64,000 bases of DNA from an uncultured Gammaproteobacteria bacterium. Lineage in GTDB: Bacteria > Patescibacteriota > Microgenomatia > Levybacterales > GWA1-39-11. The translations under genes were made by a program, and so were the position numbers. The number at the start of each line of letters is the position of its first letter. Within the stretch, counting starts at the first letter, position 1. Under the pieces are notes generated by a model. That model saw nothing but the letters and a program-made list of their open reading frames with translations. It searched no databases and was not told the DNA's origin. Location of the stretch: NCBI GenBank assembly GCA_964651815.1, contig CAZYWG010000009.1, positions 601-64,600 of the forward strand, in the 5' to 3' direction. Below, piece after piece: positions 3,568 through 55,567 of the stretch.

Positions 3568-3578
3568 TCCCTGTCAAG

Positions 3579-3610: not shown

Positions 3611-3631
3611 CCTGCTTTTTAGTCCAACGTA

Positions 3632-3920: not shown

Positions 3921-4217
3921 TTATTTTGATTTTCTGGTTTTATTTTTCGAGGATTTTTTTGCTTTTTTACCCTTTTTCTCTTCCACCAATTCAATTTTAA
4001 CAAGAGTTGGAGACATAACCGGGAAGATTCTATCAACCCCAACGCCTTCCAATTGCTGTCTCACAGTGATCATTTGGTTTGATCCAGCACCTTTAACGCT
4101 TAGAATCACTCCAACAAATGGTACGTTGCGCTCACGTTTACCTTCAATTACTTTTTGAATCACGCGTACGTTTTGCCCTTCTTTAAGTTGAAGTTCTGTA
4201 TTTAAATCCATAGACAA
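3921..4217 (-). CDS. rplS: 50S ribosomal protein L19 with a Lys-rich C-terminal tail
   Basis: GQNVRVIQKVIEGKRERNVPFVGVILSVKGAGSNQMITVRQQLEGVGVDRIFPVMSP matches the conserved L19 core. Confidence 0.8.
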   Translation of the reverse strand: MSMDLNTELQLKEGQNVRVIQKVIEGKRERNVPFVGVILSVKGAGSNQMITVRQQLEGVGVDRIFPVMSPTLVKIELVEEKKGKKAKKSSKNKTRKSK

Positions 4218-12400: not shown

Positions 12401-12402
12401 CT

Positions 12403-41677: not shown

Positions 41678-42943
41678 ATGAATTCAAAAGACAACTTTAA
41701 AATGATTGGGGAATACAAATTTTATTCTAATTGCAGATTTTGTAATTCAATACTCACTTCAGTTATTAATCTAGGTTTCTTACCACTCGCCGGAGGGTTT
41801 CTTAAAACTAAAAATCAATTCAACAAGGAAAAACTATATCCACTAGCACTAGGTTTTTGTCAAAATTGTAAACTTCTTCAAACAATGCAAGTTGTTTCTG
41901 CTGATAAGTTGTTTAAAAACTATTTCTATTTCTCATCTAAAATTAACACTCTTACTAAACATTTCAACTATATGGCAAATCATTTTAATGATCTGGGAAA
42001 GCATCCTACAAAAAAAATTGTTGTTGAAATTGGTAGTAATGATGGAGCATTTCTAAAAGCATGTTTAAATCTGGGAATTCAAGCTGTAGGAGTTGACCCT
42101 GCGACTAACGTAGTTAGACCGCTTCTTAAAGAACTTCCTATAATAAACGAGTATTTTACAACAAAAACAGCAAAGACAATTGTGAAGAAATATGGACATG
42201 CAGATATTATATTCAGTTCAAACACGTTAGCACATATTGAGGACATGCATGAAGTTTATAAAGGAATTAATTTTCTTTTAAAAGACGATGGAATGCTTGT
42301 TTTTGAAAATCATTACTTGGGAAATTTAATAAGTCAAATGCAATACGACATGATATATCATGAACATCAATATTACTACTCTTTGAATGCTCTCGTGAAC
42401 TATCTTGCACAATTCAACATGGAAATTTTTGATGTTAAGTTTATTCCAATCCATGCAGGGTCGATAAGTGTATATGTCCAGAAAAAGGGATCCGGACGGA
42501 AAGTAAAAAAAATAGTACTCGATACACTTAAGATCGAAAAAAAAGTAGGTCTTACCTCCATTAAAACTTTTACCAACTACAATAAAAGAATCGCAAAATC
42601 AAAAGTTGAATTAATCAAATTGTTAACGTCGCTCAAAAAAAAGGGTAAAACTATCGCAGGGTATGGCGCATCGGGACGGGGTACAATACTTATGAGTTAT
42701 TGCGGAATCGATAAGACCTTTATCGACTATGTGATAGATGACGCTCCCGCAAAACAAGGCGCATATACTCCAGGGAATCACTTACTTATTAGACCGTCTG
42801 ACGCCCTAAAAGAAAAAAATAGACCGGACTATGTTCTACTCTTTGCTTGGTCTTTTTACAAGGAGATTGAGGAAAAGAATAAAGATTACATAAAAAATGG
42901 AGGGAAGTTTATAATCCCACTTCCTAAAGTTAAAATTGTATAA
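41678..42943 (+). CDS. NDP-hexose C-methyltransferase (TylC3/EvaC-like) with an N-terminal zinc ribbon
   Basis: CRFCNS...CQNCKLLQ zinc ribbon, the SAM fold VVEIGSNDGAF, the IYHEHQYYYSLNAL motif and a C-terminal GYGASGRGTILMSY...VIDDAPAKQG domain. Confidence 0.65.
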   Translation: MNSKDNFKMIGEYKFYSNCRFCNSILTSVINLGFLPLAGGFLKTKNQFNKEKLYPLALGFCQNCKLLQTMQVVSADKLFKNYFYFSSKINTLTKHFNYMANHFNDLGKHPTKKIVVEIGSNDGAFLKACLNLGIQAVGVDPATNVVRPLLKELPIINEYFTTKTAKTIVKKYGHADIIFSSNTLAHIEDMHEVYKGINFLLKDDGMLVFENHYLGNLISQMQYDMIYHEHQYYYSLNALVNYLAQFNMEIFDVKFIPIHAGSISVYVQKKGSGRKVKKIVLDTLKIEKKVGLTSIKTFTNYNKRIAKSKVELIKLLTSLKKKGKTIAGYGASGRGTILMSYCGIDKTFIDYVIDDAPAKQGAYTPGNHLLIRPSDALKEKNRPDYVLLFAWSFYKEIEEKNKDYIKNGGKFIIPLPKVKIV

Positions 42944-43809
42944 TGAAAAAAATTTTCCCCAAAACTTTAGTGCTCGGATCAACAGGAATGGTAGGAAGAA
43001 CCATCTTTGATTATTTGGCTAATAAATACCCTTTAATGATTTTAGGCTCTTCAAGAACTCCCCAAAAAAAATCTAATATATTTTTGTTCGAGACCAAAGA
43101 CACTTTCGAAAGATTAAAACTAAAAACGTTAAAAGTTAAATACATTGTTAATTGCATCGGAATTCTGAATGGGAGCAAGAACCCAGAAGAAATGAAAATT
43201 GTAAATTCAAAATTTCCTCATAAACTTGAGAAATTTTGCAAGCAAAAAAAAATTAAACTTATTCATGTCTCAACAGATGCGGTATTTGATGATAATTCGA
43301 AAATAAACTTTGAAGATTCAACTACTAATCCATCTGATTATTATGGAAAGACAAAGCTTAAAGGTGAAATAAATAAAGGAATAAATATAAGATCCTCATT
43401 TATTGGTTTTGACCCTCTTGAAAAAAAGGGTTTACTTGAACTTGTTCTAAAAAGCAAAGATGAAGAAATAATTGGATTTACTAATCAGATCTGGACAGGA
43501 TGCACCACTTTACAATTTGCTATATTTATTGAAGACCTAATTGGTAAAAACCTTTATGATAAATTTGTCGAAAACACTAATATTATTCACTTTGCACCTC
43601 TTGGTCCCGTCAGTAAGTACAAAATTCTAAAAACATTTTCTGAAATCGTTCGACGAGGAAAATTAACAAAAGGGAAAGGAGTAAAAAGAACCAGAATTTT
43701 AAAAAGCAAAATAATTGAAGAAAAACTGCTTAAACGTTATAATAACGATCTTAACAACGCTCTAAATAAGTTAATTAAGTTTTATCCAAATTATGAAATT
43801 AAATATTAA
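42943..43809 (+). CDS. dTDP-4-dehydrorhamnose reductase-like (RmlD family) NDP-sugar 4-ketoreductase
   Basis: LVLGSTGMVGR Rossmann fold, HVSTDAVFDD and NPSDYYGKTKLKGE (a Y-x3-K motif) match RmlD. Confidence 0.65.
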   Translation: MKKIFPKTLVLGSTGMVGRTIFDYLANKYPLMILGSSRTPQKKSNIFLFETKDTFERLKLKTLKVKYIVNCIGILNGSKNPEEMKIVNSKFPHKLEKFCKQKKIKLIHVSTDAVFDDNSKINFEDSTTNPSDYYGKTKLKGEINKGINIRSSFIGFDPLEKKGLLELVLKSKDEEIIGFTNQIWTGCTTLQFAIFIEDLIGKNLYDKFVENTNIIHFAPLGPVSKYKILKTFSEIVRRGKLTKGKGVKRTRILKSKIIEEKLLKRYNNDLNNALNKLIKFYPNYEIKY

Positions 43810-44995
43810 AAAGAAGAAGTTAGTTTTTGTACTTGGAATCAGGCCAGATATAATCCGAGCCGTTTTGATAATGAGATTTCTTGAAAAAGAAAAGGATTTA
43901 GAAGTAATCTTTGTTTGGTCAGGTCAACATTATTCAGATAATTTAAAGGGTATTTTCTTTAGGGAATTTAAAATCAGAAAAGCTGATTATGAACTTGGTT
44001 GCAAAGGTGAAACAGACGTGGAAATCGCAGGAGAACTTATTAAAAAACTTTACGTTTTGCTTGATAGGATTAAGCCTGATGCGGTTGCATTCTTAGGGGA
44101 TACAAATACTACAGCCGGGTGTATTGCACCTGCAATGCTTAATATTCCAATTATTCACATTGAGGGGTGCTGGCATTCATACGACTGGCGAATGCCTGAA
44201 GAGAAATATAGAACAATTTCAGATGACCTTGCCGACGTTATATATACTTATGAAGAAGAGTACAAAAAAAGAGGAATTGCGCAAGGACTTAATCCACGGA
44301 ACATAGTTGTTACCAGAAATCCTATTGTTGACATTCTTAATGAGTTTTATTTTAAACAAAAGAAAAGATTAGAGAAAATGGCGGATAAAAAATTCTTTGA
44401 TTCTCGCGGAATTGAAGATGGAAAGTACTACTTAATTACTTGTCACAGGAGAGAAAATGTACATATTGATAAGTCCTTTGATGCAATTTTAAATTTTATC
44501 TCGAAAGCACAACTGCATGTTTACTTTCCAGCCAGCTATAGAACGCAAAAAGTAATAAAAGCCAGAAAATTAAAGTTGCCAAGAAACCTTATTTTGGTTG
44601 ATCCAATAGGCTACGAAGAAATATTAATATTAATGACTCACTCAAAAGGTGTATTCACCGATTCAGGTACAATTATTGAGGAAGCAAGCGTTCTAAACAT
44701 TCCGGCCGTACAAATTAGAAAATCAACAGAACGTCCACAAGTTTATGATGTGGGAGGAGCTGTCAAGTTTGACCCGGACAATCCCAAAAAATATACCCCG
44801 GAAATTGTATATAAAAAACTTGAAAAGATAACGGGAACACACTGGAAACACACTCTTGGGGATGGGAAAGCGTCTGAAAGAATTGCAAAAGATATAATTA
44901 AGCGGTTGCGATCTGGCAATCTACGTGGGCATCTCCCTCAAAACAACCATCTTCCTATACAAAGATCTTTTATGGAGGACGGGATAAAAATTTAA
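43793..44995 (+). CDS. UDP-N-acetylglucosamine 2-epimerase family protein (WecB-like)
   Basis: LGIRPDIIRAVLIMRFL, WSGQHY, KPDAVAFLGDTNTTAGCIAPAMLNIPIIHIEGCWHSYDWRMPEEKYR and DSGTIIEEASVLNIPAV. Confidence 0.7.
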   Translation: MKLNIKKKKLVFVLGIRPDIIRAVLIMRFLEKEKDLEVIFVWSGQHYSDNLKGIFFREFKIRKADYELGCKGETDVEIAGELIKKLYVLLDRIKPDAVAFLGDTNTTAGCIAPAMLNIPIIHIEGCWHSYDWRMPEEKYRTISDDLADVIYTYEEEYKKRGIAQGLNPRNIVVTRNPIVDILNEFYFKQKKRLEKMADKKFFDSRGIEDGKYYLITCHRRENVHIDKSFDAILNFISKAQLHVYFPASYRTQKVIKARKLKLPRNLILVDPIGYEEILILMTHSKGVFTDSGTIIEEASVLNIPAVQIRKSTERPQVYDVGGAVKFDPDNPKKYTPEIVYKKLEKITGTHWKHTLGDGKASERIAKDIIKRLRSGNLRGHLPQNNHLPIQRSFMEDGIKI

Positions 44996-45441
44996 TCCCA
45001 AATATCCCAATATGAGGCGGTGAAGCGAATATCATCATTTTTTGACTCCTCTAAAGTTCTGTCTGAGAAAAAAATCAACTTTGTGTCTTTTGTTAATGAT
45101 TTAAAACCATTAACATATCCCTTCGGAATATAAAGTATCTCGGGTTTATTTGAGGAAATCAAAAACTTATTCACTTTGCTTTTTTTTGACGGATTCTTCC
45201 AATCGTCAATTCGTACTGCGCCTATCTGGGCTTCCCCAGCAATTGCAAAGACAAATTTTGATTCTTTTTTATGGCCATGCCATGCCCTGACAGTACCTAT
45301 TTTATGGTTTGAGACTACGTAAAATCTTTTTATCCCTGGAAATTTAAAATCATTCACAAAACTTACTATACCTCGCGTGTCTGTTGCTGTATCCCCTTTG
45401 ATTAAAACAGGGCGATCTACAAGAGATTTAAGAATTTTCAT
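44992..45441 (-). CDS. Cupin-fold NDP-sugar isomerase/epimerase (FdtA/WxcM-C or RmlC-like)
   Basis: DTRGIVSFVNDFKFPGIKRFYVVSNHKIGTVRAWHGHKKESKFVFAIAGEAQIG...YIPKGYVNGF has the cupin His/His-Lys pattern of 3,4-ketoisomerases and 3,5-epimerases. Confidence 0.5.
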   Translation of the reverse strand: MKILKSLVDRPVLIKGDTATDTRGIVSFVNDFKFPGIKRFYVVSNHKIGTVRAWHGHKKESKFVFAIAGEAQIGAVRIDDWKNPSKKSKVNKFLISSNKPEILYIPKGYVNGFKSLTKDTKLIFFSDRTLEESKNDDIRFTASYWDIWD

Positions 45442-45446
45442 TTGGA

Positions 45447-46394
45447 TTAAACCTTTATTAAGTGTGTGTTAAATTTAGTCAAAAATGATTGATTTCCATA
45501 ACGTTCATTATTTACATCCTTTATTCTATTTTCTTCGAGCAAACTTTTCAGTTCGTCAATTCCTTGATCTATAGTATATTTTGATTTAAACCCAAGTATT
45601 TTTGTAGCCTTTCCGTTTTTCACTTGATAATTTCTTGCGTCTTCAAACTTCATCTCCTCTGTCACTATTTTGACTTTAGGGAAGTGATCTTTTACTTTCT
45701 TTGACAAATCAAACATGCTGATGTTCTCGCGATTTATGTTGAAAATTCCATTATGAGGTGTATTCACGTTTTCAAAAATTGCATTTGCCGCATCCGTGAC
45801 ATGGAGAAGAGGTCTATATTGTTTTCCTCCAAAAACCCTCAGCAATCCGTCTTTATAAGCTCTAACGGTCATAATATTTACTACAAGGTCGAGCCGTATG
45901 CGTGAAAATTGATCTCCAACACCAAACAATGTACCCAAGCGAAATATAAGCGCATTTTTATTTTTTAAATGCTGCTCTGCTTTAAGCTTTGATGATGCGT
46001 AGACTGAAAGAGGGTTTGTTGTTGATTTTTCATCCAAAAGTAAATCATGAGCACCATATACAGAACACGTTGATGTAAAAATTATTTTCCCATCAAAGTT
46101 ATTTGATAGCCATAAAACACTTTTTTCATTTACGTCAACTGCCACGTCAGGATTGAGCGCACATGCCCCATCCCCTACTAAAGCAGCCAACCACACTACC
46201 ACATCTGCCCACTTTAGTAATTTTTTTAGCTTTGCATGGTCACGGATATCTCCATATATAAAATCTACATCTTTTCTATAACTTTCTTCGTAAAGAAGCG
46301 AATCATAAACTTTTACTGAGTGTTTTGAATTCTTAAGAATATCAGTTAAAGCACCTCCTATATATCCCGCACCACCTGTAATTAATATTTTCAT
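45447..46394 (-). CDS. NAD-dependent nucleotide-sugar epimerase/dehydratase (extended SDR)
   Basis: MKILITGGAGYIGGAL Rossmann motif and the catalytic YASSK (Y-x3-K). Confidence 0.8.
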   Translation of the reverse strand: MKILITGGAGYIGGALTDILKNSKHSVKVYDSLLYEESYRKDVDFIYGDIRDHAKLKKLLKWADVVVWLAALVGDGACALNPDVAVDVNEKSVLWLSNNFDGKIIFTSTCSVYGAHDLLLDEKSTTNPLSVYASSKLKAEQHLKNKNALIFRLGTLFGVGDQFSRIRLDLVVNIMTVRAYKDGLLRVFGGKQYRPLLHVTDAANAIFENVNTPHNGIFNINRENISMFDLSKKVKDHFPKVKIVTEEMKFEDARNYQVKNGKATKILGFKSKYTIDQGIDELKSLLEENRIKDVNNERYGNQSFLTKFNTHLIKV

Positions 46395-46450
46395 AAGTTA
46401 TAATTTTGTACCATATTATAAACAATTATCCTCACGAAGACCAGAAAGTT

Positions 46451-47350
46451 TTATGAAGTGCCAATTTTTTGAAAAGATTTAACATGAAACTTTAGAAACT
46501 CACCTAGGTATGGAATTGGAGAATAATAAAGACAAATGAGTGAGATGATGATTTTTGTGAATAAATTATTTCCACGGGCTATTCTTGCCGCTTCACAAGC
46601 TTTTTTGTAGGCTTCTGACTTAAATTGTTTCAACTCGTGAGGAAATTTTGGATCTTCAAAAATTTTGTTTATCACCTTAATGTGATCCATAGCAGCCCTA
46701 AAACTTCTTCCGGCAATAGTTGCTTGACCCGGGTGCACACGGGATGTTGCTAAATATTTTGGAATTCTCGCAAAATCTCCCAACAAACCTGCCCTCAGCC
46801 AAAAATCATAATCGCTTACATATTTATAATTAACATCACGTCCTTTGAGTTTTTTAAGAATCTCTTTCTTAAAAAAAGCGCTCGCTCCAAGTGGGCAATT
46901 ATGAGATCTGATCATATATTCATAACTAAAGTCCCGAGTTTTAACTCTCTTCATTTCTTTTCCATTTTTGTCAGTAAAGATCCAATCTGAGTAAGCAACA
47001 ATAATCTCAGGATTATATTGCATAAACTTTACAAATTCTCTGATTGCGCCCGGCAACAATGGATCATCCGAATTAACTATACCAATTATGTCCCCATGCG
47101 CCATTTTTAAACCCTTATTTACTGTCCTCACTTCTCCTACATTTTTATGTGACTCGAATGTTATTCTATCTTTATACTTTTCAATTACCTCCTTCGTATT
47201 ATCTGTTGATCCGTCATCAAGCACTATATATTCAATATTTGGATAGTCTTGGTTTAATACGCTTAGTATAGATTCTTCCAGAAAATCTGCGCGGTTATAT
47301 GCAGGAGTTATGACAGTAACAAGTAGATTCTTTCTATCACTTTGTTTCAT
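46451..47350 (-). CDS. Glycosyltransferase family 2
   Basis: LLVTVITPAYNRADFLEESILSVLNQDYPNIEYIVLDDGSTDNT and NSDD (DxD). Confidence 0.8.
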   Translation of the reverse strand: MKQSDRKNLLVTVITPAYNRADFLEESILSVLNQDYPNIEYIVLDDGSTDNTKEVIEKYKDRITFESHKNVGEVRTVNKGLKMAHGDIIGIVNSDDPLLPGAIREFVKFMQYNPEIIVAYSDWIFTDKNGKEMKRVKTRDFSYEYMIRSHNCPLGASAFFKKEILKKLKGRDVNYKYVSDYDFWLRAGLLGDFARIPKYLATSRVHPGQATIAGRSFRAAMDHIKVINKIFEDPKFPHELKQFKSEAYKKACEAARIARGNNLFTKIIISLICLYYSPIPYLGEFLKFHVKSFQKIGTS

Positions 47351-48573
47351 GAGTTTTTAGATAGCGACTTGAATAAAAAATAAAGTTGAAAAGGAAACAT
47401 TATTAGGGAACTTATAAGGACGGCATACGCACCCCCCGCCAACCCTAATATCTTTATTAAAGGAATAATTATCGCGATCATTACAAAAAAACTAATTGCA
47501 GAGATTATAGTTAAATATTTTTGTTTCCCAACTGAATAGAATATAGCGCCGGTTGGGCTCCCTAACATATTTATAAAAGCAAAAATTGCAAGAATCCTAA
47601 GAATACTACCTACCGAGACCCATTTTGGGCCAAGAACTATTGAAATAAGCTGAGTCGGGAAAAGTAAAAAAATTAAAAGAAGAGGTGAAATCAAAAGTGC
47701 AGTAATAATACTTGTCTTGATATACGCCCTTTTTAGTCTTTGTTTATCGTCAGAAATTTTTACATAAACCGGAAATGTTACTCTCGCAACTATTTCAGAA
47801 AATTCGGTTAAAGGAAGTATGGCAATCGTGTAAGCCATATCATAAATTCCAAGTGAGGCAACACCAAGAATCTTACCAACTACCATATTATCTGCATTTT
47901 GAAATAGATACCCAAAAATACCCGCTCCTGTAACCCACTTTCCGTGCGTAACAATTTCATAAAAAATCGATTTGTCGAATTTGATTGAAGGAACCGGCTT
48001 AACAAATAAGAAAGATATTGCAACTTCAAAAAGTGCCCCTGCAATAAGCCCATAAATTAAGGCAATTGGGTCGCGAATCAAAATAATCAAAGCAACCGCG
48101 ACTAGTGACTCTACAAAAAAAATACTAGACCTGTAATAGAACTCTTTATGAAATTTAAGGTCCTTTTGGAATGCTGCAATTGATGGATTGATAAAACCTC
48201 TGATTAAAGGTACTAATGAAACTAAAAACAAAAGTGGAAGAACTTGCTGATTTTTAAAAAAACCGGCAACCAAAAAAGATGAGACAAATATTGCTGCAGA
48301 AATTAACCCACCGCGGAGTATTGAAACTACCCAAGCCGTATCAACGTATTTATCTATTATGTCTTTTTTCTGTACCAAAAAAACATTTATCCCAGTTTCA
48401 GTCAATACCTCAATTAGAGCGAGAATAAATATGGCGATTCCATAAACCCCAAACTGGTAGGGCGACAAAATTCTTGCGATGATTATCGTTCTTAAAAAAG
48501 AAAGAGACCGAGTAAATAATCTAAAAGCCCCGAGCCAAGAGAGACCTTTTATTGTTTCTTTGGTATATCCCAT
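47347..48573 (-). CDS. Wzx-like oligosaccharide flippase (polysaccharide biosynthesis protein family)
   Basis: A 12-TM protein with the N-terminus GLSWLGAFRLFTRSLSFLRTIIIARILSPYQFGVYGIA, typical of MOP/Wzx flippases. Confidence 0.65.
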   Translation of the reverse strand: MGYTKETIKGLSWLGAFRLFTRSLSFLRTIIIARILSPYQFGVYGIAIFILALIEVLTETGINVFLVQKKDIIDKYVDTAWVVSILRGGLISAAIFVSSFLVAGFFKNQQVLPLLFLVSLVPLIRGFINPSIAAFQKDLKFHKEFYYRSSIFFVESLVAVALIILIRDPIALIYGLIAGALFEVAISFLFVKPVPSIKFDKSIFYEIVTHGKWVTGAGIFGYLFQNADNMVVGKILGVASLGIYDMAYTIAILPLTEFSEIVARVTFPVYVKISDDKQRLKRAYIKTSIITALLISPLLLIFLLFPTQLISIVLGPKWVSVGSILRILAIFAFINMLGSPTGAIFYSVGKQKYLTIISAISFFVMIAIIIPLIKILGLAGGAYAVLISSLIMFPFQLYFLFKSLSKNS

Positions 48574-48675
48574 GTGTTTCTTTTCAGGTTTTAGTATATC
48601 ATGGCCAGTCTAGAGTGTTTTGGAAAGGTAAAGCATGATCATCTTGTTTTTTTATAAATTGCTGATATATAATCT

Positions 48676-49920
48676 ATGGACTTAATAATGAAGAAAAGCA
48701 TTGTATCAATAAGCAAATGTCGATCTTGTGACTCAGCAAATCTAGTAAAGATTTTGAATCTAGGGAATTTGTATCTGTCAAATTTTGTTAAAGATAGCAA
48801 AAAATCTGAGAAATTTCCGCTCAACATTCTTTTGTGTCGAAATTGTTACCTGCTCCAACTAAAGCATAATACCCCAATGTCTCTACTTTACAGCGAAAAT
48901 TATGGCTATCGCTCCGGAATTAACCAAACTATGCAAAAAGAACTTGCCGAAATAGTTGTGAAAACCCTTTCTAAAATTACTAGCAAAACTACTGACAAAT
49001 TAGTAGTTGTAGACATTGGAGCAAACGACGGAACACTTTTAAAAAATTACCCAAAAAATGTAACTCGAATAGGTGTGGAACCGATCAGAAAATTGGCGAA
49101 ACAATGCAAAAAATATGCAACACAAGTTGTAAACGATTTCTTTAATTATCAATCGGTAAGCAAAGCTTTAGGTAATAAGAAAGCAGATATAGTCACTGCA
49201 ATATCTTGTTTTTACGATATGGAAGAGCCAAATGATTTTGTCGCAGATGTTAAAAAAATATTGAAAGAGGACGGGATTTTTGTAATACAACAAAATTATC
49301 TTGTGAAAATGCTGACGCAAAATGCTTTTGATAACATTGTCCACGAACATTTAGAATACTATTCGTTAATTTCGCTTCAGAATCTTTTGAAACAACATGG
49401 TCTTGAAGTGTTTGATCTGGAGCTACGTGAGTTAAATGGTGGAAGCTTCAGAACATATATTGGATTTACAGGAAAGCATACAGTATCAGTTTCAGTCTAC
49501 GAACAACTTGAACTGGAAAAATTGATTAGCCTTCATAGGAAAAAAATATACTCCGATTTTGCTAAGAGAATAAAAGCAATAAAAAAGGAGGTTTACGGAT
49601 TTATTCAGGAAAAAGTTGCTGAAGGCAAAAAAGTATATCTATATGGTGCATCAACTAGAGGAAATACCCTACTTCAATATTTTGATCTCGACAAGAGTTT
49701 AATTTCAAAGGCAGTTGAAAGAAACCCCGAAAAATGGGGTACAAAAATTGCATCAGTTGGAATACCAATAATTTCAGAGGATCAAGCAAGGACAGAAAAA
49801 CCTGACTATATGCTTGTATTACCTTGGTTTTTTAAAGAAGAATTCTTAAAACGCGAACAAGCTTATCTTAAATCCGGCGGGCATTTTATATTTCCGCTGC
49901 CAAAACTAGAAATTGTGTGA
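48676..49920 (+). CDS. NDP-hexose C-methyltransferase paralogue (TylC3-like) with a zinc ribbon
   Basis: Same architecture as the 41678..42943 gene (CRSCDS...CRNCYLLQ, VVVDIGANDGT, IVHEHLEYYSL, LYGASTRGNTLL). Confidence 0.65.
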   Translation: MDLIMKKSIVSISKCRSCDSANLVKILNLGNLYLSNFVKDSKKSEKFPLNILLCRNCYLLQLKHNTPMSLLYSENYGYRSGINQTMQKELAEIVVKTLSKITSKTTDKLVVVDIGANDGTLLKNYPKNVTRIGVEPIRKLAKQCKKYATQVVNDFFNYQSVSKALGNKKADIVTAISCFYDMEEPNDFVADVKKILKEDGIFVIQQNYLVKMLTQNAFDNIVHEHLEYYSLISLQNLLKQHGLEVFDLELRELNGGSFRTYIGFTGKHTVSVSVYEQLELEKLISLHRKKIYSDFAKRIKAIKKEVYGFIQEKVAEGKKVYLYGASTRGNTLLQYFDLDKSLISKAVERNPEKWGTKIASVGIPIISEDQARTEKPDYMLVLPWFFKEEFLKREQAYLKSGGHFIFPLPKLEIV

Positions 49921-49999
49921 TATCCTTTTTTTGAAGAAATGTTAATATGAATGTAAACGGATATAAACTACATTAATCGAGACTGTTCTTTCTTACTTT

Positions 50000-50761
50000 T
50001 TGATAACATCATTAATGGAAAAAAGCGTAAACGAATATAATAATGATGCTTCAAAACATGGAGGATATATATATTCTCTAAATCGACATTCCTCTAAAAT
50101 CGCTACAAAAAGACAGACAGATGAAATTATTTATTTAATCAAGAAATACTTCTTTCAAAAAAAAATTAAAATTCTAGATTTGGGGTGTGGCGATGGAGAA
50201 TTCACAATGAAAATATATAACCAAATTAAACCAGATCTTGTCCTGGGAATAGATAACTCAAAAAAAGGAATTGAGATAGCAACAAAGAAATCAAAAAATG
50301 AAGATAAAAAAAGAATAAAATTTGAAGTTGCTAACGTTTATAATTTAGCCAAATACAAACATTACGGGTTTGATCTTGTCGTGATTAGAGGCGTTATTCA
50401 CCATTTATATAAACCCCGCCAAGTAATAAAGGAGTTAAATAAGATATCAGATTATGTTTTAATCCTAGAACCTAACGGGTATAATTTAATTTTGAAGATA
50501 ATAGAAAATACGTCCGAATACCACAAGCGGCATGAAGAAAAATCCTACTTCCCTTTTCAGATAAATTCTTGGTTTTCCAAGAATGGATACGCAGTTGTAG
50601 AACAAAAAATATTTGGTCTAGTACCTTATTTTTGCGGCGAGTCTCTAGCTAACTTTCTAAAATTAATCGAACCCTTATTTGAAAAATACTCGATTCTAAG
50701 AGACCTATGTACCGGTAGTAACGTTGCTCTTTACAAAAACACGCGTATTAAAAAATTTTAG
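50000..50761 (+). CDS. Class I SAM-dependent methyltransferase
   Basis: ILDLGCGDGEFT motif I and the acidic loop VLGIDNS. Confidence 0.7.
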   Translation: MITSLMEKSVNEYNNDASKHGGYIYSLNRHSSKIATKRQTDEIIYLIKKYFFQKKIKILDLGCGDGEFTMKIYNQIKPDLVLGIDNSKKGIEIATKKSKNEDKKRIKFEVANVYNLAKYKHYGFDLVVIRGVIHHLYKPRQVIKELNKISDYVLILEPNGYNLILKIIENTSEYHKRHEEKSYFPFQINSWFSKNGYAVVEQKIFGLVPYFCGESLANFLKLIEPLFEKYSILRDLCTGSNVALYKNTRIKKF

Positions 50762-50771
50762 TTATCATTTA

Positions 50772-52751
50772 TTACCACAAACTGTTCGGATTTTTTAAGC
50801 TAAAAAATTCCAAATAACCATTGAAACCGGAATCTACAGAAACTTTTGTTATTATCCTATCTTTATAAAACAAAGGTATACGTGCCAGATTTATGATGCA
50901 CGGAGAATTTTTACTACACGAATTATAATAAATTGTAGTTGATAACCCATCCTTTGTTTTAAGTGTAATAAAATTTAAACCACTCTTCTTATATTTTATC
51001 TTCGGAGTTAAAACGACAACTTTTTCACTAGAATAGAAGTTTTCTTTATTCAAAAATGAATTAATGATGTTCATATTGTCGGTCTTGAGTAATGATATGT
51101 TTTTATCGCTCAAATAGTTAAACTTATATAGCCCTTCCGAATAAGGGATTCTATATAGGAATACGTTTAGCAAATATTTTTTGTAATCGCTTATTTTATT
51201 TAAAACATTAGAATTAAAAAAATCTTTACCATTCTCTCTTTCCAGGACTAAATGTTTACCAATATTTGCAACTGGGTAATAATTGTCTAGAATATAACCA
51301 AACAGATAACTTTGTCTAATGAAATCAGGAACACCATCTTGAATAGAAGATCCTTCAGTATTAAGTGTAATAAATTCTATTTTATTGTCCCTTATATACT
51401 TAATGGAAGATTCTTGCTTCAATTTTGATGCACCCTCAAAAATTGCATTATAGAAAGGAGGTTTCTGGTGCAACAGAACATAAAGTGCCGAGTCACCTGT
51501 TGGAAAACTATAAATTTTATTATTAAAATCATGCTGTTGACTTAAAAAATTAACAATTTTTACGTATTCGGGATTATTTTCTGTAAAAATTTTGAGATTG
51601 TTTTCATAACAATTGCTATTGATAACCAAACTTATATTCCTATATGCATATGCTGCATTAATTGTTTGAACTTTAAGAATAAATACACTGATGATAACCG
51701 CACTCGTAAGTACCGAGGTATAAATCAGGTTTTTTTTGTTTTTATTTTTTACAAAACCTAGGATTTCGTAAACCATAAACATGAGGAGTACAATCGATAA
51801 AAATATTATTTGTAAATCAATGGAACGAATAATACTTTTTTGCTCCATTAGAATTACTTCAATCATCAAAGAAATTTGCATAAAAGTGATTAAAGTTGTT
51901 TTTTGTTTTAAGAACACGAACTTTGTCAGGTTCCAAAATAAAGAAGTGAATAAAATTGTGAAAGAAAAAATGTTGGCAGGAGAGTCTACAAATGAGAAAA
52001 AGGGGGTTTTCGCAACACTCGTCACCTCGTTTACATCTTTGAAGTAATTTAATAGATTTGCAACGTTTCCATTATAAATTAGAATAATCGGTAAAACTCC
52101 TAAAATAAATCCAAAAAAAACAAACATTAATTCTTTGACGCTTTCCACCATTACTTCCTTATTGATTTTTTTTGAGTGAATCAATTTTTTTATCAAAAAT
52201 TGTAATAAAAAAGAAACGACTAAATAGGTTCCGATATCATTTATCAAAGATAATACTATACCCATTAACAAACCTAGAAATAAAAGTAAATTTCTACTTA
52301 AAATCTTCTGTGAATATAAAATAAAGGAAAAAAACAAAGCAACAAAAACTAATATTCCATATCTACCAAAAGTTTGAAAACTGTTAGTGAGTAGAATATA
52401 AGAATAAAATATTCCTATGGTGAAAAAAAGTATCAACTTATCTTTTAATACTTTCTTAAAAAGAAAAAATGCAAGCGTAAACAGAAGGGGAACTACCATA
52501 TAGTATAGTAGAGAAATTGAAAAGTTGTAATTTCTAAAAAAAGTGAAAATACCGTATGGGTAGAAAATGTCTTTATAGGGGAGGAGACGACTTAATGATG
52601 CATAATTCCATAACAGAAACTCCTGCAAATCAAAATTGTAATAGTTTAAATAACCGCTGCAAATATTGGCAAAATAAGGTGCTGACAATAAGAAGAATAA
52701 AGTAAATACAATTATTAAATCTATATTTTTTTTGAAAAAATTATTCCTCAT
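50772..52751 (-). CDS. Large polytopic membrane protein, possibly a GT-C-like glycosyltransferase
   Basis: At least 12 TM helices, then a soluble C-terminal domain of about 270 aa. The N-terminal loop NFDLQEFLLWNYASLSRLLPYKDIFYPYG is only weakly GT-C-like. Confidence 0.4.
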   Translation of the reverse strand: MRNNFFKKNIDLIIVFTLFFLLSAPYFANICSGYLNYYNFDLQEFLLWNYASLSRLLPYKDIFYPYGIFTFFRNYNFSISLLYYMVVPLLFTLAFFLFKKVLKDKLILFFTIGIFYSYILLTNSFQTFGRYGILVFVALFFSFILYSQKILSRNLLLFLGLLMGIVLSLINDIGTYLVVSFLLQFLIKKLIHSKKINKEVMVESVKELMFVFFGFILGVLPIILIYNGNVANLLNYFKDVNEVTSVAKTPFFSFVDSPANIFSFTILFTSLFWNLTKFVFLKQKTTLITFMQISLMIEVILMEQKSIIRSIDLQIIFLSIVLLMFMVYEILGFVKNKNKKNLIYTSVLTSAVIISVFILKVQTINAAYAYRNISLVINSNCYENNLKIFTENNPEYVKIVNFLSQQHDFNNKIYSFPTGDSALYVLLHQKPPFYNAIFEGASKLKQESSIKYIRDNKIEFITLNTEGSSIQDGVPDFIRQSYLFGYILDNYYPVANIGKHLVLERENGKDFFNSNVLNKISDYKKYLLNVFLYRIPYSEGLYKFNYLSDKNISLLKTDNMNIINSFLNKENFYSSEKVVVLTPKIKYKKSGLNFITLKTKDGLSTTIYYNSCSKNSPCIINLARIPLFYKDRIITKVSVDSGFNGYLEFFSLKNPNSLW

Positions 52752-52977
52752 TTTTTACAATTTTCGCGCTCACTATGAAAATAACAATTGGAATGAAAAG
52801 TAAAACAAAGAAAAAAAGTGTATCAAAGTAAAAAGGGTATCCAAAATACTGAGAGAATCCTACAAGTTTATCGTTACCTATTTCCGGTGGTAATAACAAC
52901 GCCTTAATTATTTTAAATCCCATTAACAAAGCCAAATTTGTAAAAATTGAAAGGACTATGCTAAAAAGTAAAACCAG
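52741..52977 (-). CDS. Small 2-TM membrane protein (78 aa), hypothetical
   Basis: The internal Met of track ORF 52741..53055 starts 2 nt after the stop of the upstream 862-aa gene. It encodes two hydrophobic helices (MELEFMKKDKLVLLFSIVLSIFTNLALLMGF...). Confidence 0.3.
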   Translation of the reverse strand: MVLLFSIVLSIFTNLALLMGFKIIKALLLPPEIGNDKLVGFSQYFGYPFYFDTLFFFVLLFIPIVIFIVSAKIVKNEE

Positions 52978-52978
52978 C

Positions 52979-55567
52979 TTATCTTTTTTCATAAACTCCA
53001 ATTCCATCAGGATAAACAAATAATCCAAGATACGGATAATAAAAGAAGCTATCAAAGTATTTATATAAAGGGAGTTTTAAAGGAAAATAAGCAACTCTGA
53101 AGTAACCTATTCTTTGAAGTTTTTTTACAAGATCAGACTTCAGAGAAATTTTGTAAAACATTTTTTCGTATTGAACATTTGAAATCACTACATATTTAGG
53201 TAAGACTTTTGTTTTACTGTCGATAACAACATAATTATATCTTGTTTTAAAATTGGGATGATATTGTTTTTCGTAAAATTCTTTAAGGACAAAATCTGGC
53301 TCAAATTGGTATATGGGAATGTTCTCTAGTCCAATAACAGACTTTTCTGGGATATTATTCACTATCCAAGCCGAGGAAGTCTGTTCCGGGGATGGGGAAA
53401 GCTTCATCCCAACCCATAGGTATGATTCAAATATTTGAATAAACATTAGTATCACCAAAAAGATATAGAAAAATATTTTTAGAAATTTCGTTTTGTATGT
53501 AGATTCGATCATATTTTTGAGGGCTAATGCATCTATGGTTACTAAAAATGGCAATAAGACCACAGACCTATTTGCGCTAATTGTTATACCTAGTGGAACA
53601 TAACTTAAACAAAATACTAAAAATGACAATAAAATGAACAATTTTTGTTTTAAATCTTCAGTCCGCTTTTGCTTAAAATCTTTAAAGATTAGGTATGCAA
53701 AATAAAGTATTAAAGGTATGCTCACAAAATATAACTCATGTCCAAATATCGCGGGCAACTTATGAAGTAGAGTTAAATCTGTCAGTGAGTATTTGGATGG
53801 GAAATTTCTTAGAAGAAGTGAGGGACCACTAACTATATTACTATATATATATTCAAACATACTCTGCCCTCTAAAAACTACGTCTGGAAGCCCAAAAAAA
53901 ACAGAGACAACAAAAAATATAAAAACTCCTAGTGCTAGACTCAAATATTTTTTGCTTGACGAAGCCATAAACATTAAATAAGAAACAGGCACAAGTATCA
54001 GCAGGGGTATAGCGCTTACTTTAACAGCAAACGAAAACCCGGAAAATGTGCAAGCCAAAAGGAAGTTTTTCTTATTTGGAGTCAAAGAGAATTTAAGAAA
54101 ATAATAAAATGAAAGTGCAACCCAAAATGTGAGTGCGATATCATATTTAAAAAAATTGCTGATTACAAGCCAGGCAGGTGTAAAAATAAACAGGAGCAAT
54201 ATAAGTATTGAATTTATTTTTAACAACTTTGCGATTTGCCTCATGGTTATTAACGTCAAAACCCCAAAAAATAGGGTTAGAAGCCTCAGAACTATGAATA
54301 ATTTTTCCTGCTCAAATATTGAGTCAACTGAAGATTTAATAGCAAAAGGATTAACAATATGTGTTATATAAAAAGGAATCAGGAGAATTCCCGATATAAA
54401 AAAGTTAAACATTGTCCCATTTGCAGACCCTGACAAATTTGGCGTACCGTATTTGAATACATCTCTCACTGCTTGCATCTGGTGCCATTCGTCCATTTGA
54501 TATGCGAAAGGATGATATTGATTAGGTATTCCAGAGGTAATAACCGAAATCATCGTAATAATATAAATGGTAACCAAAATAAATAAAACACTATTACCCT
54601 TAACTACACTTTTAAGATTTACTTTCATAATTAATCTAGTTAATCCGAGAGACGTTCCAATCAAAACAGCAAGATCTGAGGTTATTTGGAGAAGAGGCAA
54701 AATAGTAAATGCTCGCAAATCTTCAACATATTTGTAATTTTTCTTGACTGCCCACAATACATAAACTACCGTTGCGATTAATATTAACATTAAAATAATA
54801 ATTGATTTAAGAAGTAATGCAATAACTATTAGATATGCGTAAAAAATATATCTTACGTAAATCAAAATGACTTTATCTCTAACTATTCCTGACTCCGCAT
54901 CACCTAATGCAAATCTAAAGAACATGACAAAGGCTTGCCAAATATTTTTTCTTGGAGTCCAGTAGACAATAGCGTCTTTCACAAAAACAATTTTTGAATT
55001 TGCCCTCTTTAAATTGTTTGCAAAAACATAATCTTCATTATGAGAATATTCTTCATCAAATCCATGAATTTTCTTCCAAATACTTTTTTTAAACGCAACA
55101 GATCTGGCTGCCGGAAGAAATTCTGATTCAACAATCCTGTCAGGCATCACAAGAGCATACGGAATCACGCATTTTTGAAAAAAGGTCTCGGAATTTCCCT
55201 TATAATATCCGGCGACAACATCAACCGTCGTATCACTGAATGGTTTAATAATATTCTTAACCCAATTTTTGTCGAGAGTATTGCCAGCATCAGAGCAAAG
55301 AATAATATCACCTGTCGCTTTTCTAATCCCTTCGTTTCTTCCGACTGAACGATTTCCCGGTTTGTTAAGAAGTTTAATAGTTGGATTCCTTACTTTATTC
55401 TTTAGAAGGTAGTCTTTAACAATTTTGACCGTTGAGTCGCTGCTTCCCCCATCTACGATAATAAATTCGTCCGGCAATTTTGATTGGCTCAGCACCGATT
55501 TAATAAACCTCAAAATTGTGTTCTCTTCGTTATAAATCGTTACAATAAGAGATAACTTGGTTTTCAT
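52979..55567 (-). CDS. Fusion protein: N-terminal GT2 domain plus C-terminal GT-C-like membrane domain
   Basis: The N-terminus LSLIVTIYNEENTI...IIVDGGSSDST...SDAG is GT2. The membrane domain has at least 14 TM helices, with the loop YQMDEWHQMQAVRDVFKYG. Confidence 0.6.
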   Translation of the reverse strand: MKTKLSLIVTIYNEENTILRFIKSVLSQSKLPDEFIIVDGGSSDSTVKIVKDYLLKNKVRNPTIKLLNKPGNRSVGRNEGIRKATGDIILCSDAGNTLDKNWVKNIIKPFSDTTVDVVAGYYKGNSETFFQKCVIPYALVMPDRIVESEFLPAARSVAFKKSIWKKIHGFDEEYSHNEDYVFANNLKRANSKIVFVKDAIVYWTPRKNIWQAFVMFFRFALGDAESGIVRDKVILIYVRYIFYAYLIVIALLLKSIIILMLILIATVVYVLWAVKKNYKYVEDLRAFTILPLLQITSDLAVLIGTSLGLTRLIMKVNLKSVVKGNSVLFILVTIYIITMISVITSGIPNQYHPFAYQMDEWHQMQAVRDVFKYGTPNLSGSANGTMFNFFISGILLIPFYITHIVNPFAIKSSVDSIFEQEKLFIVLRLLTLFFGVLTLITMRQIAKLLKINSILILLLFIFTPAWLVISNFFKYDIALTFWVALSFYYFLKFSLTPNKKNFLLACTFSGFSFAVKVSAIPLLILVPVSYLMFMASSSKKYLSLALGVFIFFVVSVFFGLPDVVFRGQSMFEYIYSNIVSGPSLLLRNFPSKYSLTDLTLLHKLPAIFGHELYFVSIPLILYFAYLIFKDFKQKRTEDLKQKLFILLSFLVFCLSYVPLGITISANRSVVLLPFLVTIDALALKNMIESTYKTKFLKIFFYIFLVILMFIQIFESYLWVGMKLSPSPEQTSSAWIVNNIPEKSVIGLENIPIYQFEPDFVLKEFYEKQYHPNFKTRYNYVVIDSKTKVLPKYVVISNVQYEKMFYKISLKSDLVKKLQRIGYFRVAYFPLKLPLYKYFDSFFYYPYLGLFVYPDGIGVYEKR

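Follow-up and report, generated by a model that had tools for sequence, protein, structure and literature searches.

Two probable sugar C-methylation modules in the envelope-glycan locus of a Levybacteria-like bacterium

Do two sugar C-methyltransferases that lie in one bacterial glycan locus serve the same pathway? The question is raised by a 64-kb stretch of DNA (here, the window), in which a first-pass annotation had described a single branched-deoxysugar pathway with a duplicated methylation step. We checked the nine open reading frames of the cassette against their coordinates and ran a Pfam-type domain search on each of them. All nine are present, with strong profile matches to the domains first named for them, and the surroundings support a set of nucleotide-sugar tailoring enzymes within the envelope-glycan locus of an ultra-small, Levybacteria-like bacterium of the CPR. 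Our preferred reading, which we hold with moderate confidence, is that the region comprises two independent sugar C-methylation modules in a Levybacteria-type envelope-glycan locus.

The first methyltransferase, MT-A (41678..42943, + strand), combines Methyltransf_13 (5.6e-18), class I SAM and Methyltransf_14 (2.6e-50) domains, and the second, MT-B (48676..49920, + strand), has the same three (Methyltransf_13 4.2e-11, class I SAM, Methyltransf_14 9.1e-44), the C-terminal Methyltransf_14-like domain being found in both. They align end to end with MtmC (4rv9; 2.7e-74 for MT-A, 6.1e-56 for MT-B), match the KijD1 and TcaB9 structures over their full length, and share with TylC3, EryBIII, EvaC, TcaB9, KijD1 and MtmC the three-domain build, the four-cysteine zinc site, the SAM motif and the catalytic His/Glu. 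On this sequence evidence MT-A and MT-B are true TylC3/TcaB9-family sugar C-methyltransferases, as the annotation had it, and family and context make a C-methyl-branched sugar on the surface glycan, also proposed there, the likely output.

A neighbour-joining (NJ) tree joins the clade of MT-A to MtmC/TcaB9 and places MT-B in a separate deep clade with homologues from Chloroflexi, Thaumarchaeota and DPANN. Because the two proteins are 31% identical and fall in different deep clades, they would be old members of the family with no local duplication behind them; their earlier description as duplicated paralogues is to be qualified accordingly. MT-A keeps the four cysteines of the zinc site and each of the five residues of the TcaB9 pocket (the equivalents of Y76, H181, Y222, E224 and H225), so that it also shares Y76, H181 and Y222 with the NDP-hexose 3-C-methyltransferases of TylC3/TcaB9 type. 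MT-B retains Y76, E224 and H225 and departs from the actinomycete enzymes by an Asp for H181 and a Val for Y222, both changes being invariant.

The start of RED288 (42943..43809, + strand) overlaps the stop of MT-A. RED288 is a predicted RmlD-like NAD(P)H C4-ketoreductase (RmlD_sub_bind/Epimerase, with RmlD_sub_bind at 4.2e-16; TIGR01214, 1e-15) with the motifs GSTGMVG, VSTD and YYGKTK, and is 35–43% identical to the reductase downstream of MT-A in loci L004 and L085-L088. A predicted non-hydrolysing UDP-HexNAc 2-epimerase of WecB/CapG/WbpI type follows (43793..44995, + strand; Epimerase_2 1.9e-67, TIGR00236 1.8e-57; PDB matches 4neq 2.8e-51, CapG 7ya2 9.6e-47 and WbpI type 1.6e-44). We sought partners within 6 kb of MT-A-clade genes in 23 related loci with enough flank. 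A front end, either FnlA-like or resembling the extended SDR of the window (SDR315), lies in this range in 21/23, an RmlD-like gene in 20/23 and a 2-epimerase in 20/23; all three occur together in 18 of the 23 MT-A loci, as against 1 of 37 MT-B loci. MT-A, RED288 and the 2-epimerase form one unit, and their travelling as a separate module contradicts the idea of a single pathway.

Two front ends alternate in this unit: an FnlA/CapE-type UDP-GlcNAc 4,6-dehydratase/5-epimerase, or a Cj1427-like SDR with a short RmlC-like cupin, as in the window. Loci L085-L088 hold MT-A, a reductase, a 2-epimerase, a small GT2 and an FnlA-like SDR that matches FnlA (4j2o, 2.3e-107), CapE (3.3e-103) and TIGR04130 (408 bits). 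Two gene orders recur in metagenomes, one with reductase, FnlA-like gene, methyltransferase and 2-epimerase, the other with cupin, SDR, GT2, methyltransferase, reductase and 2-epimerase; sequences nearly identical to the methyltransferases of these metagenome loci carry the labels Bradyrhizobium, Amylibacter and Syntrophus (90%-identity clusters). The Levybacteria locus L007 is syntenic with the window (MT-A 64%, 2-epimerase 66% and GT2, at the same position, 65% identical), the sole difference being an FnlA-like gene exactly where the cupin and SDR315 stand. Both front-end types are intermixed across the NJ tree of MT-A, and the 2-epimerase is 68–70% identical to that of both variants.

Judged by these families, the MT-A module follows the logic of a UDP-2-acetamido-L-hexose and not that of dTDP-mycarose, -evalose or -noviose, the type of set first suggested; its partners are an FnlA/CapE-type dehydratase or an SDR with a cupin, an RmlD-like reductase and a CapG/WbvD-type 2-epimerase. 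The carrier would be UDP, going by the 2-epimerase and FnlA families only. RmlA and RmlB would be dispensable because of this logic, and Pfam searches of the other ORFs and tblastn found no RmlA or RmlB (in line with the first reading), no FnlA and no nucleotidyltransferase within the 64-kb window.

A three-enzyme pathway to L-RhaNAc/L-QuiNAc has been described (PMC6765297, PMC9614988), with WbvB/WbvR/WbvD in Vibrio cholerae O37, Mg534/535/536 in Megavirus and the related FnlA/B/C (CapE/F/G, WbjB/C/D) leading to L-FucNAc. Module A would share with it the UDP-GlcNAc start, a 4-keto L-configured intermediate, the RmlD-like C4 reductase and the final WecB-family 2-epimerase, and in L007, L085-L088 and many metagenome loci it also opens with an evident homologue of FnlA/CapE. 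Unlike that pathway, for which no such step is described, module A has an inserted TylC3-type C-methyltransferase, and the window has a Cj1427-like SDR and a separate short cupin instead of an FnlA-type enzyme. We regard module A as a variant of known pathways, with the WbvB/WbvR/WbvD logic towards UDP-L-RhaNAc/L-QuiNAc and an added C-methylation; no description of a C-methylated N-acetyl-L-hexosamine was found in the reviews consulted.

We propose that module A has three + strand genes (MT-A, RED288 and the 2-epimerase) and four − strand genes, those for the cupin, SDR315, a GT2 glycosyltransferase (46451..47350) and a Wzx/MOP flippase (47347..48573). From the observed domain architectures, conserved catalytic residues, gene associations and front-end swap we infer its substrates, methylation position, order of steps and products. 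The starting compound would be a UDP-2-acetamido sugar, with UDP-GlcNAc the likeliest. SDR315 would oxidise its C4 and the cupin would epimerise a carbon beside the keto group (C5, perhaps C3 as well) to give an L-configured 4-ulose; in the sister loci one FnlA/CapE-type UDP-GlcNAc 4,6-dehydratase/5-epimerase would perform both steps. MT-A would then take the C3 proton of this UDP-4-keto-HexNAc intermediate, through the equivalent of TcaB9 His225, and place the methyl group of SAM on C3. The choice of C3 over C5 follows the conserved TcaB9 pocket residues and the mutagenesis literature. RED288, which we liken to WbvR by family and place in the pathway, would reduce C4, and the CapG/WbvD-like enzyme would epimerise C2. 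The resulting 3-C-methyl-N-acetyl-L-hexosamine would be used by the adjacent GT2 (Glycos_transf_2, 2.5e-31), which has no predicted TM segments and is transcribed together with the genes for Wzx, SDR315 and the cupin, and Wzx (Polysacc_synt_3 5.4e-65, NF007773 1.5e-51) would flip the lipid-linked glycan.

The domain search places SDR315 (45447..46394, − strand) among the extended SDRs, and its best solved relative is PDB 6vo6 (2.6e-38; next match 7.5e-14), which we take to be Cj1427 by its PDB code and the annotation wording for Campylobacter jejuni, the molecule name of the entry being generic. Among relatives of assigned function, 4-epimerases come next (8rdg). SDR315 has an invariant S-T-C-S-V-Y-G motif, without Asp or Glu, where RmlB has T-D-E. 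We favour a C4-dehydrogenase over an atypical 4,6-dehydratase as the enzyme that would make the 4-keto sugar; the earlier suggestion that this SDR could be the 4,6-dehydratase is unsupported, since the acid/base pair is missing and the nearest relatives are Cj1427 and then 4-epimerases. For want of that pair a 6-deoxy product is not secured for the window, and with a C4-dehydrogenase at the front end the product may keep its 6-OH.

The exact replacement of FnlA by SDR315 and the cupin argues, on the contrary, for the same 6-deoxy product and conflicts with the C4-dehydrogenase reading. Because of this exchange in situ between the window and L007, a minority reading survives, which we regard as tentative: module A would be as above, except that SDR315 would be a UDP-GlcNAc 4,6-dehydratase of an atypical, retaining kind and the cupin would act as a 5- or 3,5-epimerase; together they would remake the FnlA product and lead to a 3-C-methyl-2-acetamido-2,6-dideoxy-L-hexose of C-methyl L-RhaNAc/L-QuiNAc type. 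The intermixed front ends of the MT-A tree speak for it, as do a methyltransferase-free operon (SDR, cupin, RmlD-like reductase, 2-epimerase) that mirrors RmlB/RmlC/RmlD plus WbvD, and the invariant Cys110 of SDR315, which stands where RmlB has its acid Asp. To our knowledge, N-acetylhexosamines of L configuration that retain a free 6-OH are seldom if ever reported from nature. However, neither an Asp/Glu nor an Asp/Lys pair follows the catalytic Thr of SDR315, and every 4,6-dehydratase type that we know of has an acid/base pair there (T-D-E, T-S-E or T-D-K); the nearest solved homologue is a pure C4-dehydrogenase, followed by 4-epimerases, and SDR315 lies outside Polysacc_synt_2, the family of UDP-GlcNAc dehydratases.

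The favoured C4-dehydrogenase has a counterpart in C. jejuni, where the epimerases and reductases that follow a C4-dehydrogenase (6-OH) front end are homologous to those that follow a 4,6-dehydratase (6-deoxy) one (PMC10680097). Its capsular heptose modification (Cj1427, a Cj1430-type cupin and a Cj1428-type C4-reductase) likewise runs from an SDR oxidase through a cupin epimerase to a reductase; Cj1427 is the solved protein most similar to SDR315, and the cupin profile matches GDP-heptose 3-epimerases. The substrates there are GDP-heptoses, whereas the partner here is a UDP-HexNAc 2-epimerase; Cj1427 has T-N-S in place of the invariant T-C-S of SDR315, and module A has a methyltransferase and a 2-epimerase in addition.

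The short RmlC-superfamily cupin (149 aa; 44992..45441, − strand; FdtA 6.9e-10, dTDP_sugar_isom 2e-9) is proposed to be a C5 (possibly also C3) epimerase of the 4-keto intermediate. Its family profile matches RmlC 3,5-epimerases best (1.4e-8), then GDP-heptose 3-epimerases (about 5e-6) and, over the N-terminal half only, QdtA/FdtA (about 1e-4). H55, H57 and K62 are invariant, and a Phe replaces the Tyr acid of RmlC. Where a homologue is found, it adjoins an SDR315-type gene in most loci examined. It is possible to read the cupin as a 3,4-ketoisomerase instead, from the missing RmlC Tyr and an FdtA-like H-x-H motif.

We consider it improbable that both methyltransferases act in a single dTDP branched 6-deoxyhexose pathway of mycarose, evalose or noviose kind, in which SDR315 would serve as 4,6-dehydratase and RmlA/RmlB would be encoded elsewhere or dispensable. 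Among solved structures, actinomycete dTDP-sugar 3-C-methyltransferases are indeed the nearest to both MT-A and MT-B, the cupin, reductase and SDR types are also known from dTDP pathways, and a true RmlC adjoins MT-B, with an RmlD-like gene also flanking it, in six other Levybacteria loci. But the conserved partners of MT-A belong to UDP-GlcNAc-specific families (FnlA/CapE, CapG-like 2-epimerase), the window has neither a nucleotidyltransferase nor RmlB, the rest of the cassette is missing around MT-B in 36/37 CPR-like loci, and we know of no role for a WecB-family 2-epimerase in the mycarose, evalose or noviose routes. The actinomycete enzymes use dTDP-2,6-dideoxy, dTDP-3-amino or dTDP-6-deoxy 4-keto sugars from RmlA/RmlB-type enzymes, whereas for MT-A the conserved context suggests a 4-keto sugar of UDP-2-acetamido type. 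Outside antibiotic producers, the use of a TylC3-family enzyme for an envelope glycan has a parallel in the LPS virenose (6-deoxy-3-C-methyl-gulose) of Coxiella burnetii, for which a pathway with the TylCIII-like CBU_0691 was proposed in silico only (PMC3539893); unlike module A, that route is proposed from a dTDP- or GDP-4-keto-6-deoxyhexose, with neither an acetamido group nor a WecB-family 2-epimerase.

MT-B is part of a conserved core Levybacteria glycan locus. It is found in more than 120 clusters at 64–77% identity, and its occurrence without other tailoring genes in all but one of the 37 CPR-like loci is a second result at odds with one pathway and a duplicated step. Wzx adjoins MT-B in 28/37 of these loci and is divergently transcribed from it in the window. 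A keto-sugar-forming partner is usually missing nearby, and in archaea the homologues have NTP-transferase, SDR, DegT and AglB genes as neighbours. MT-B would form module B with a generic methyltransferase, and its likely substrate is an NDP-4-keto-6-deoxyhexose, presumably distinct from the sugar of module A and supplied by genes elsewhere in the genome. Use of the module A intermediate by MT-B is conceivable in this genome; since MT-B is retained by dozens of loci without that module, its function cannot depend on it. We consider it highly improbable that, in this genome, the intermediate of module A serves both methyltransferases, which might then methylate, say, C3 and C5 and yield a sugar with two C-methyl groups: MT-A and MT-B stand 6 kb apart on either side of one set of tailoring genes, as they also do in L004, L007 and L105, and the two departures of the MT-B pocket from TcaB9 could mean another regiochemistry, but MT-B keeps its 64–77% identity where there is no module A at all, and we know of no doubly C-methylated hexose of this kind.

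Downstream of MT-B, the generic class I SAM methyltransferase (50000..50761, + strand; Methyltransf_31/25/11 matches) is probably an O-methyltransferase. It is a variable accessory gene, with a homologue at the same position in 1 of 80 related loci. In L001 the gene is called from a start 15 bases further in.

Beyond it (50772..53055, − strand) lie a 659-aa polytopic membrane protein, with about 10 TM segments and a C-terminal domain of about 300 aa, and a 104-aa partner with three TM segments; a Pfam search gave no match for the pair, which is a candidate GT-C-like transferase. It adjoins MT-A-type or other TylC3-family genes in L004, L005, L026, L049, L085-L088 and L020/32/41/47.

The nine open reading frames described in the first-pass annotation were all recovered at the same positions and with the domain content claimed for them, and gene spacing divides them into three transcription units. 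The first, on the plus strand, joins the sugar C-methyltransferase MT-A (41678–42943) to the RmlD-like reductase RED288 (42943–43809) and a 2-epimerase (43793–44995), with overlapping stops and starts. The second runs on the minus strand and comprises a Wzx flippase (47347–48573), a GT2 (46451–47350), the 315-aa extended SDR SDR315 (45447–46394) and a 149-aa cupin (44992–45441), while the third, again on the plus strand, holds the other sugar C-methyltransferase MT-B (48676–49920) and a generic SAM methyltransferase (50000–50761). RED288 (288 aa) matches RmlD_sub_bind and TIGR01214 and carries the motifs GSTGMVG, VSTD and YYGKTK. The 400-aa 2-epimerase belongs to the non-hydrolysing WecB family (Epimerase_2, 1.9e-67; CapG 7ya2, 9.6e-47), its best solved relatives being an archaeal UDP-GlcNAc 2-epimerase, CapG and WbpI-type enzymes. 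We infer the function of every gene in the locus. Neither Pfam scans of the other ORFs nor tblastn revealed a homologue of RmlA, RmlB or FnlA anywhere in the 64 kb window: neither gene of a dTDP-deoxysugar start (glucose-1-phosphate thymidylyltransferase, dTDP-glucose 4,6-dehydratase) was found there, and the sole trace of an FnlA/CapE/WbvB-type protein (Polysacc_synt_2 plus 2C) was a weak N-terminal match on SDR315. Elsewhere the window encodes an F-type ATP synthase, GatA/B, DnaE, MurT/GatD, many GT-C-like membrane proteins, and GT2-PMT_2 and GT4-PMT_2 fusions.

Both MT-A and MT-B contain a Methyltransf_13 Zn ribbon, a class I SAM domain and a C-terminal Methyltransf_14 domain (2.6e-50 and 9.1e-44, respectively), and each matches the solved sugar 3-C-methyltransferases MtmC, KijD1 and TcaB9 over the full length. 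The Zn cysteines are invariant in both families (C19, C22, C61 and C64 for MT-A; C15, C18, C54 and C57 for MT-B), as is the SAM motif, tested as E/D-x-G-x-N-D-G, which reads VEIGxNDG and DIGANDG, respectively. The TcaB9 motif I-Y-D-E-H aligns with I-Y-H-E-H in MT-A and I-V-H-E-H in MT-B, so that Glu224 and His225 are kept in both. In TcaB9, His225 is reportedly the catalytic base, and mutagenesis is said to have likewise established roles for Tyr76, His181, Tyr222 and Glu224. MT-A keeps the equivalents of all five pocket residues (Y76, H181, Y222, E224, H225); MT-B keeps Y76, E224 and H225, but positions 181 and 222 (TcaB9 numbering) are occupied by Asp and Val, respectively, both invariant. 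The two proteins share 31% identity, and MT-A scores 240–254 bits against MtmC, KijD1 and TcaB9, above its score against MT-B. In a neighbour-joining tree whose characterised references were MtmC and TcaB9 alone, both rebuilt from alignments, MT-A and its CPR and proteobacterial homologues form the sister group of MtmC/TcaB9, and MT-B falls in a separate deep clade that also holds Chloroflexi, Thaumarchaeota and DPANN sequences.

The partners of MT-A are conserved across related loci. The contigs with MT-A homologues at 54–61% identity (L085–L088) all share one gene set: besides MT-A it comprises genes for a 2-epimerase, an RmlD-like reductase, a small GT2 similar to polyprenyl-phosphate transferases and, in convergent orientation, an SDR of ~350 aa. 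From its matches to 4j2o (2.3e-107), CapE (3.3e-103) and TIGR04130 (408 bits), this SDR is a predicted UDP-GlcNAc 4,6-dehydratase/5-epimerase of the FnlA/CapE/PseB type. A metagenome scan contributed 80 further loci, many of them with an operon of reductase, FnlA-like gene, methyltransferase and 2-epimerase, and others with cupin, SDR315-like gene, GT2, methyltransferase, reductase and 2-epimerase. Their methyltransferases have near-identical sequences in 90%-identity clusters labelled Bradyrhizobium, Amylibacter or Syntrophus; a plasmid collection searched for an annotated MT-A-clade member of a cultured organism returned matches that were all at ≤36% identity. In the MT-A clade, 23 loci are flanked by 5 kb or more on each side; a front end is present in 21 of them (FnlA-like in 17, SDR315-like in 4), the reductase and the 2-epimerase in 20 each, and all three in 18.

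UDP-GlcNAc is converted to UDP-L-RhaNAc/UDP-L-QuiNAc by three enzymes, a 4,6-dehydratase/5-epimerase, an RmlD-like 3-epimerase/4-reductase and a 2-epimerase, as in WbvB/WbvR/WbvD and Mg534/535/536 (PMC6765297, PMC9614988). Compared with the WbvB/R/D and FnlA/B/C pathway, the window holds both the RmlD-like predicted C4-reductase and the WecB-family 2-epimerase (WbvD/FnlC/CapG), but lacks the FnlA-type first enzyme, whereas L007, L026 and L085–L088, which are syntenic or sister loci, carry an FnlA/CapE/WbvB-type gene. A TylC3-type enzyme requires a proton adjacent to the keto group, and the 4-ulose made by FnlA has one at C3. In the simplest reading, MT-A would methylate C3 of UDP-4-keto-HexNAc ahead of C4 reduction and C2 epimerisation, which would explain the absence of RmlA and RmlB. 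The gene context points to UDP-4-keto-HexNAc as the substrate of MT-A, and not to a dTDP-4-keto sugar. Sequence comparison makes it probable that module A, consisting of the first two transcription units, leads from UDP-GlcNAc to a 3-C-methyl-N-acetyl-L-hexosamine via SDR315, the cupin, MT-A, RED288 and the 2-epimerase, with MT-B acting separately.

In the window and in the related loci L004 and L105, SDR315 and the 149-aa cupin take the place of FnlA. The locus L007, from a Levyibacteriota MAG, is gene-for-gene syntenic with the window (identity of 64% for MT-A, 66% for the 2-epimerase, 65% for GT2, 43% for Wzx and 72% for MT-B), the only difference being an FnlA-like gene at the position of the cupin and SDR315. 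The 2-epimerase of the window is 69–70% identical to those of FnlA-type loci and 68% identical to that of L004, and the two types of front end are interspersed in the MT-A tree. This swap, the equal similarity of the 2-epimerases and the interspersion argue that the front ends are interchangeable.

The SDR315 family is very conserved, with 61–65% identity across Chloroflexi, Saccharibacteria, Geobacter and an archaeon. Among solved structures, SDR315 matches 6vo6 best (2.6e-38, the next match being at 7.5e-14); this entry has a generic molecule name, and from its C. jejuni annotation string and the PDB codes we take it to be Cj1427. Among functional relatives, 4-epimerases come next (8rdg, a GDP-sugar 4-epimerase). 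In C. jejuni, Cj1427 acts as the C4-dehydrogenase for GDP-heptose (PMC10680097). At the catalytic Thr the SDR315 family reads T-C-S-V-Y-G where Cj1427 reads T-N-S-G-Y-G, and the second motif is Y-A-S-S-K; T-C-S, with Cys in place of the Asn of Cj1427, is invariant in 120 family members. In 4,6-dehydratases of the RmlB/GMD/PglF type an acid/base pair directly follows the catalytic Thr (T-D-E, T-S-E or T-D-K), and no such pair was found in the 120 members of the SDR315 family. By its sequence, its Thr/Tyr/Lys triad and the lack of this pair, SDR315 fits the Cj1427-type C4-dehydrogenases, which release the 4-keto product and hold NADH tightly bound, to be recycled by alpha-ketoglutarate.

The strongest rival takes SDR315 as a dehydratase that gives a 6-deoxy product. 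The motif test is negative for an RmlB-like dehydratase, and the reading survives because the swap with FnlA is exact and 6-hydroxy L-HexNAc sugars are rare. In C. jejuni, however, dehydrogenase front ends, which keep the 6-hydroxyl, and dehydratase front ends, which yield 6-deoxy sugars, feed homologous epimerases and reductases (PMC10680097), and this precedent of parallel front ends favours a 6-hydroxy product. On our analysis, SDR315 and the cupin are probably a C4-oxidising enzyme and an epimerase with a 6-hydroxy product, and a dehydratase is rather unlikely.

An RmlC-type 3,5-epimerase has about 180 aa and a catalytic His, Lys and Tyr acid, whereas the shorter cupin of the window has invariant His55 and Lys62 equivalents of RmlC and an invariant H-x-H, with the Tyr acid replaced by Phe125. 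A profile of the cupin family matched RmlC-type 3,5-epimerases best (1.4e-8), followed by GDP-heptose 3-epimerases, while FdtA/QdtA were weakly matched and the CapF cupin not significantly. The cupin could alternatively be an FdtA/QdtA 3,4-ketoisomerase; despite tied Pfam scores, the profile search favours the RmlC-type epimerases, and the reading is further disfavoured because a 3-keto product would not suit a back end common with FnlA. If the pair were a split CapF/FnlB (reductase plus C3-epimerase), the operon would have no enzyme to form the keto group; moreover, CapF is absent among the best 60 of 65 SDR315 matches and scores 0.06 against the cupin profile.

Some relatives of SDR315 are membrane-anchored, with an N-terminal multi-TM domain of ~140 aa and the motif S-S-C-S-V-Y-G. 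In the locus L102 such a gene (2450–3937) directly follows the cupin, beside an MT-A-type methyltransferase; in L096 (4920–6308), L098 (13030–14496), L126 (6801–8267) and L131 (1627–3132) it lies elsewhere within the same locus. This layout is reminiscent of PglF and WbpM, the membrane-bound dehydratases of UDP-GlcNAc, but the catalytic domain is different.

A conserved four-gene operon that lacks a methyltransferase occurs in Geobacter sp. FeAm09 (CP042466.1; L089, 9001–12446), in Chloroflexi (L090, 9001–12450) and in Saccharibacteria CPR2 (L091, 9001–12483). It encodes an SDR315-like protein (62–64% identity), a short cupin (52–60%), an RmlD-like reductase and an Epimerase_2 protein, and seems to form an uncharacterised route from UDP-HexNAc to L-HexNAc, parallel to WbvB/R/D, with a Cj1427-like front end.

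MT-B was surveyed by an alignment-based scan with one genome per species, which gave 80 loci. In Levybacteria-like genomes it lies in a highly conserved array (Wzy_C-like, PMT_2, GT2, GT2-PMT_2, GT4, Wzx, MT-B, small GT2, GT2-PMT_2, onward). Wzx is adjacent in 28 of the 37 MT-B loci with enough flank, and the front-end SDR, reductase and 2-epimerase occur together in one. The conservation of this core locus, and the presence of the three-gene set in a single one of the 37, argue that MT-B is an independent enzyme. Six loci have a true RmlC gene (Pfam 1.3e-66) directly upstream of MT-B, in some cases together with an RmlD-like gene. MT-B is a separate, core-locus predicted C-methyltransferase whose keto-sugar substrate would be made elsewhere, plausibly by the Rml route. 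The candidate branched 6-deoxyhexose pathway of the first-pass annotation, read as one dTDP route in which the methyltransferase is duplicated, is not supported: the co-occurrence tables and the tree go against it, as do the UDP-HexNAc-type partners of MT-A. C-methyl-branched surface sugars are still the likely output.

Archaeal homologues of MT-B (44–50% identity), in the loci L060, L068 (Nitrosotalea devanaterra) and L072–L079 (DPANN archaea), lie among AglB/STT3, Glycos_transf_4, nucleotidyltransferase, SDR, DegT and WecB genes, which suggests archaeal N-glycans with C-methyl sugars. The loci L047, L023, L020 and L032, all from Levybacteria-like MAGs, carry three or four different TylC3-family paralogues per glycan locus: MT-A-like, MT-B-like and members of two further clades. 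C-methyl sugars thus seem to be a recurrent theme of the lineage.

The enzymes of the locus are ordinary members of known superfamilies, and it is their combination that is unusual. A TylC3-like gene in an envelope-glycan locus is not itself new, Coxiella virenose being an earlier example. In the literature we found no description of a TylC3-family C-methyltransferase within a UDP-2-acetamido-L-hexose pathway, and searches for earlier reports of C-methyl HexNAc, or of C-methylated sugars in CPR bacteria, returned nothing relevant. None of the glycan reviews consulted includes C-methyl-branched N-acetyl-L-hexosamines; 3-C-methyl-branched sugars are 'quite uncommon' according to a recent NMR review, which gives no C-methyl HexNAc among them. 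Tentatively, the MT-A clade may mark an undescribed, widespread pathway (CPR/Levybacteria; Bradyrhizobium-, Amylibacter- and Syntrophus-like) to C-methyl-branched N-acetyl-L-hexosamines, in which, in the window, an undescribed UDP-HexNAc C4-dehydrogenase and a short cupin epimerase would replace FnlA, while the operon of this pair with reductase and 2-epimerase in Geobacter, Chloroflexi and Saccharibacteria would lead to L-hexosamines that keep the 6-hydroxyl. If this is true, rare-sugar biosynthesis would gain a new branch, C-methylation on the UDP-GlcNAc-derived L-hexosamine route, and the surface glycans of bacteria as different as uncultivated ultra-small lineages and common Proteobacteria would gain a new kind of monosaccharide. 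The SDR and cupin pair, which is highly conserved and very widespread, would acquire a function as well; being apparently interchangeable with FnlA, it bears on the making of 6-deoxy versus 6-hydroxy L-sugars. Relatives carry up to four TylC3-family enzymes per locus, and since reduced CPR genomes invest in several of them, elaborate surface sugars are likely to matter for attachment or phage avoidance. All pathway enzymes are small and soluble, and thus in vitro testing is direct.

Three minus-strand genes near the cluster (36693–38921, 38902–41562 and 52979–55567) encode fusions of a cytoplasmic GT2 or GT4 domain with a PMT_2/GT-C-like membrane domain, and further polytopic proteins with no Pfam match lie nearby (34331–35839, 55701–57542). 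Lipid-linked donors and transfer outside the cytoplasm seem to play a large part in this locus. A 659-aa protein with no Pfam match (50772–52751, minus strand), which has ~10 TM segments and a C-terminal domain of ~300 aa, is accompanied by a 104-aa 3-TM partner (52741–53055, minus strand). Homologous pairs adjoin TylC3-family genes in the related loci L004, L005, L026, L049, L085–L088 and L020/32/41/47, and transfer of the C-methyl sugar by a GT-C-like mechanism is a candidate role for the pair.

The taxonomy of the locus is based on the labels of homologous loci, the closest of which are labelled Levybacteria, Levyibacteriota or Patescibacteria. Many contigs (L005, L009, L011, L017 and others) are titled 'uncultured Gammaproteobacteria bacterium' despite clearly Levybacteria-like gene content and best matches, and this label looks wrong. 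The window also holds a MurT/GatD pair for peptidoglycan amidation with an APH/choline-kinase-like gene in between (11096–14155) and a stand-alone GGDEF protein beside gatB and dnaE (20747–21529), all of which are ordinary genes.
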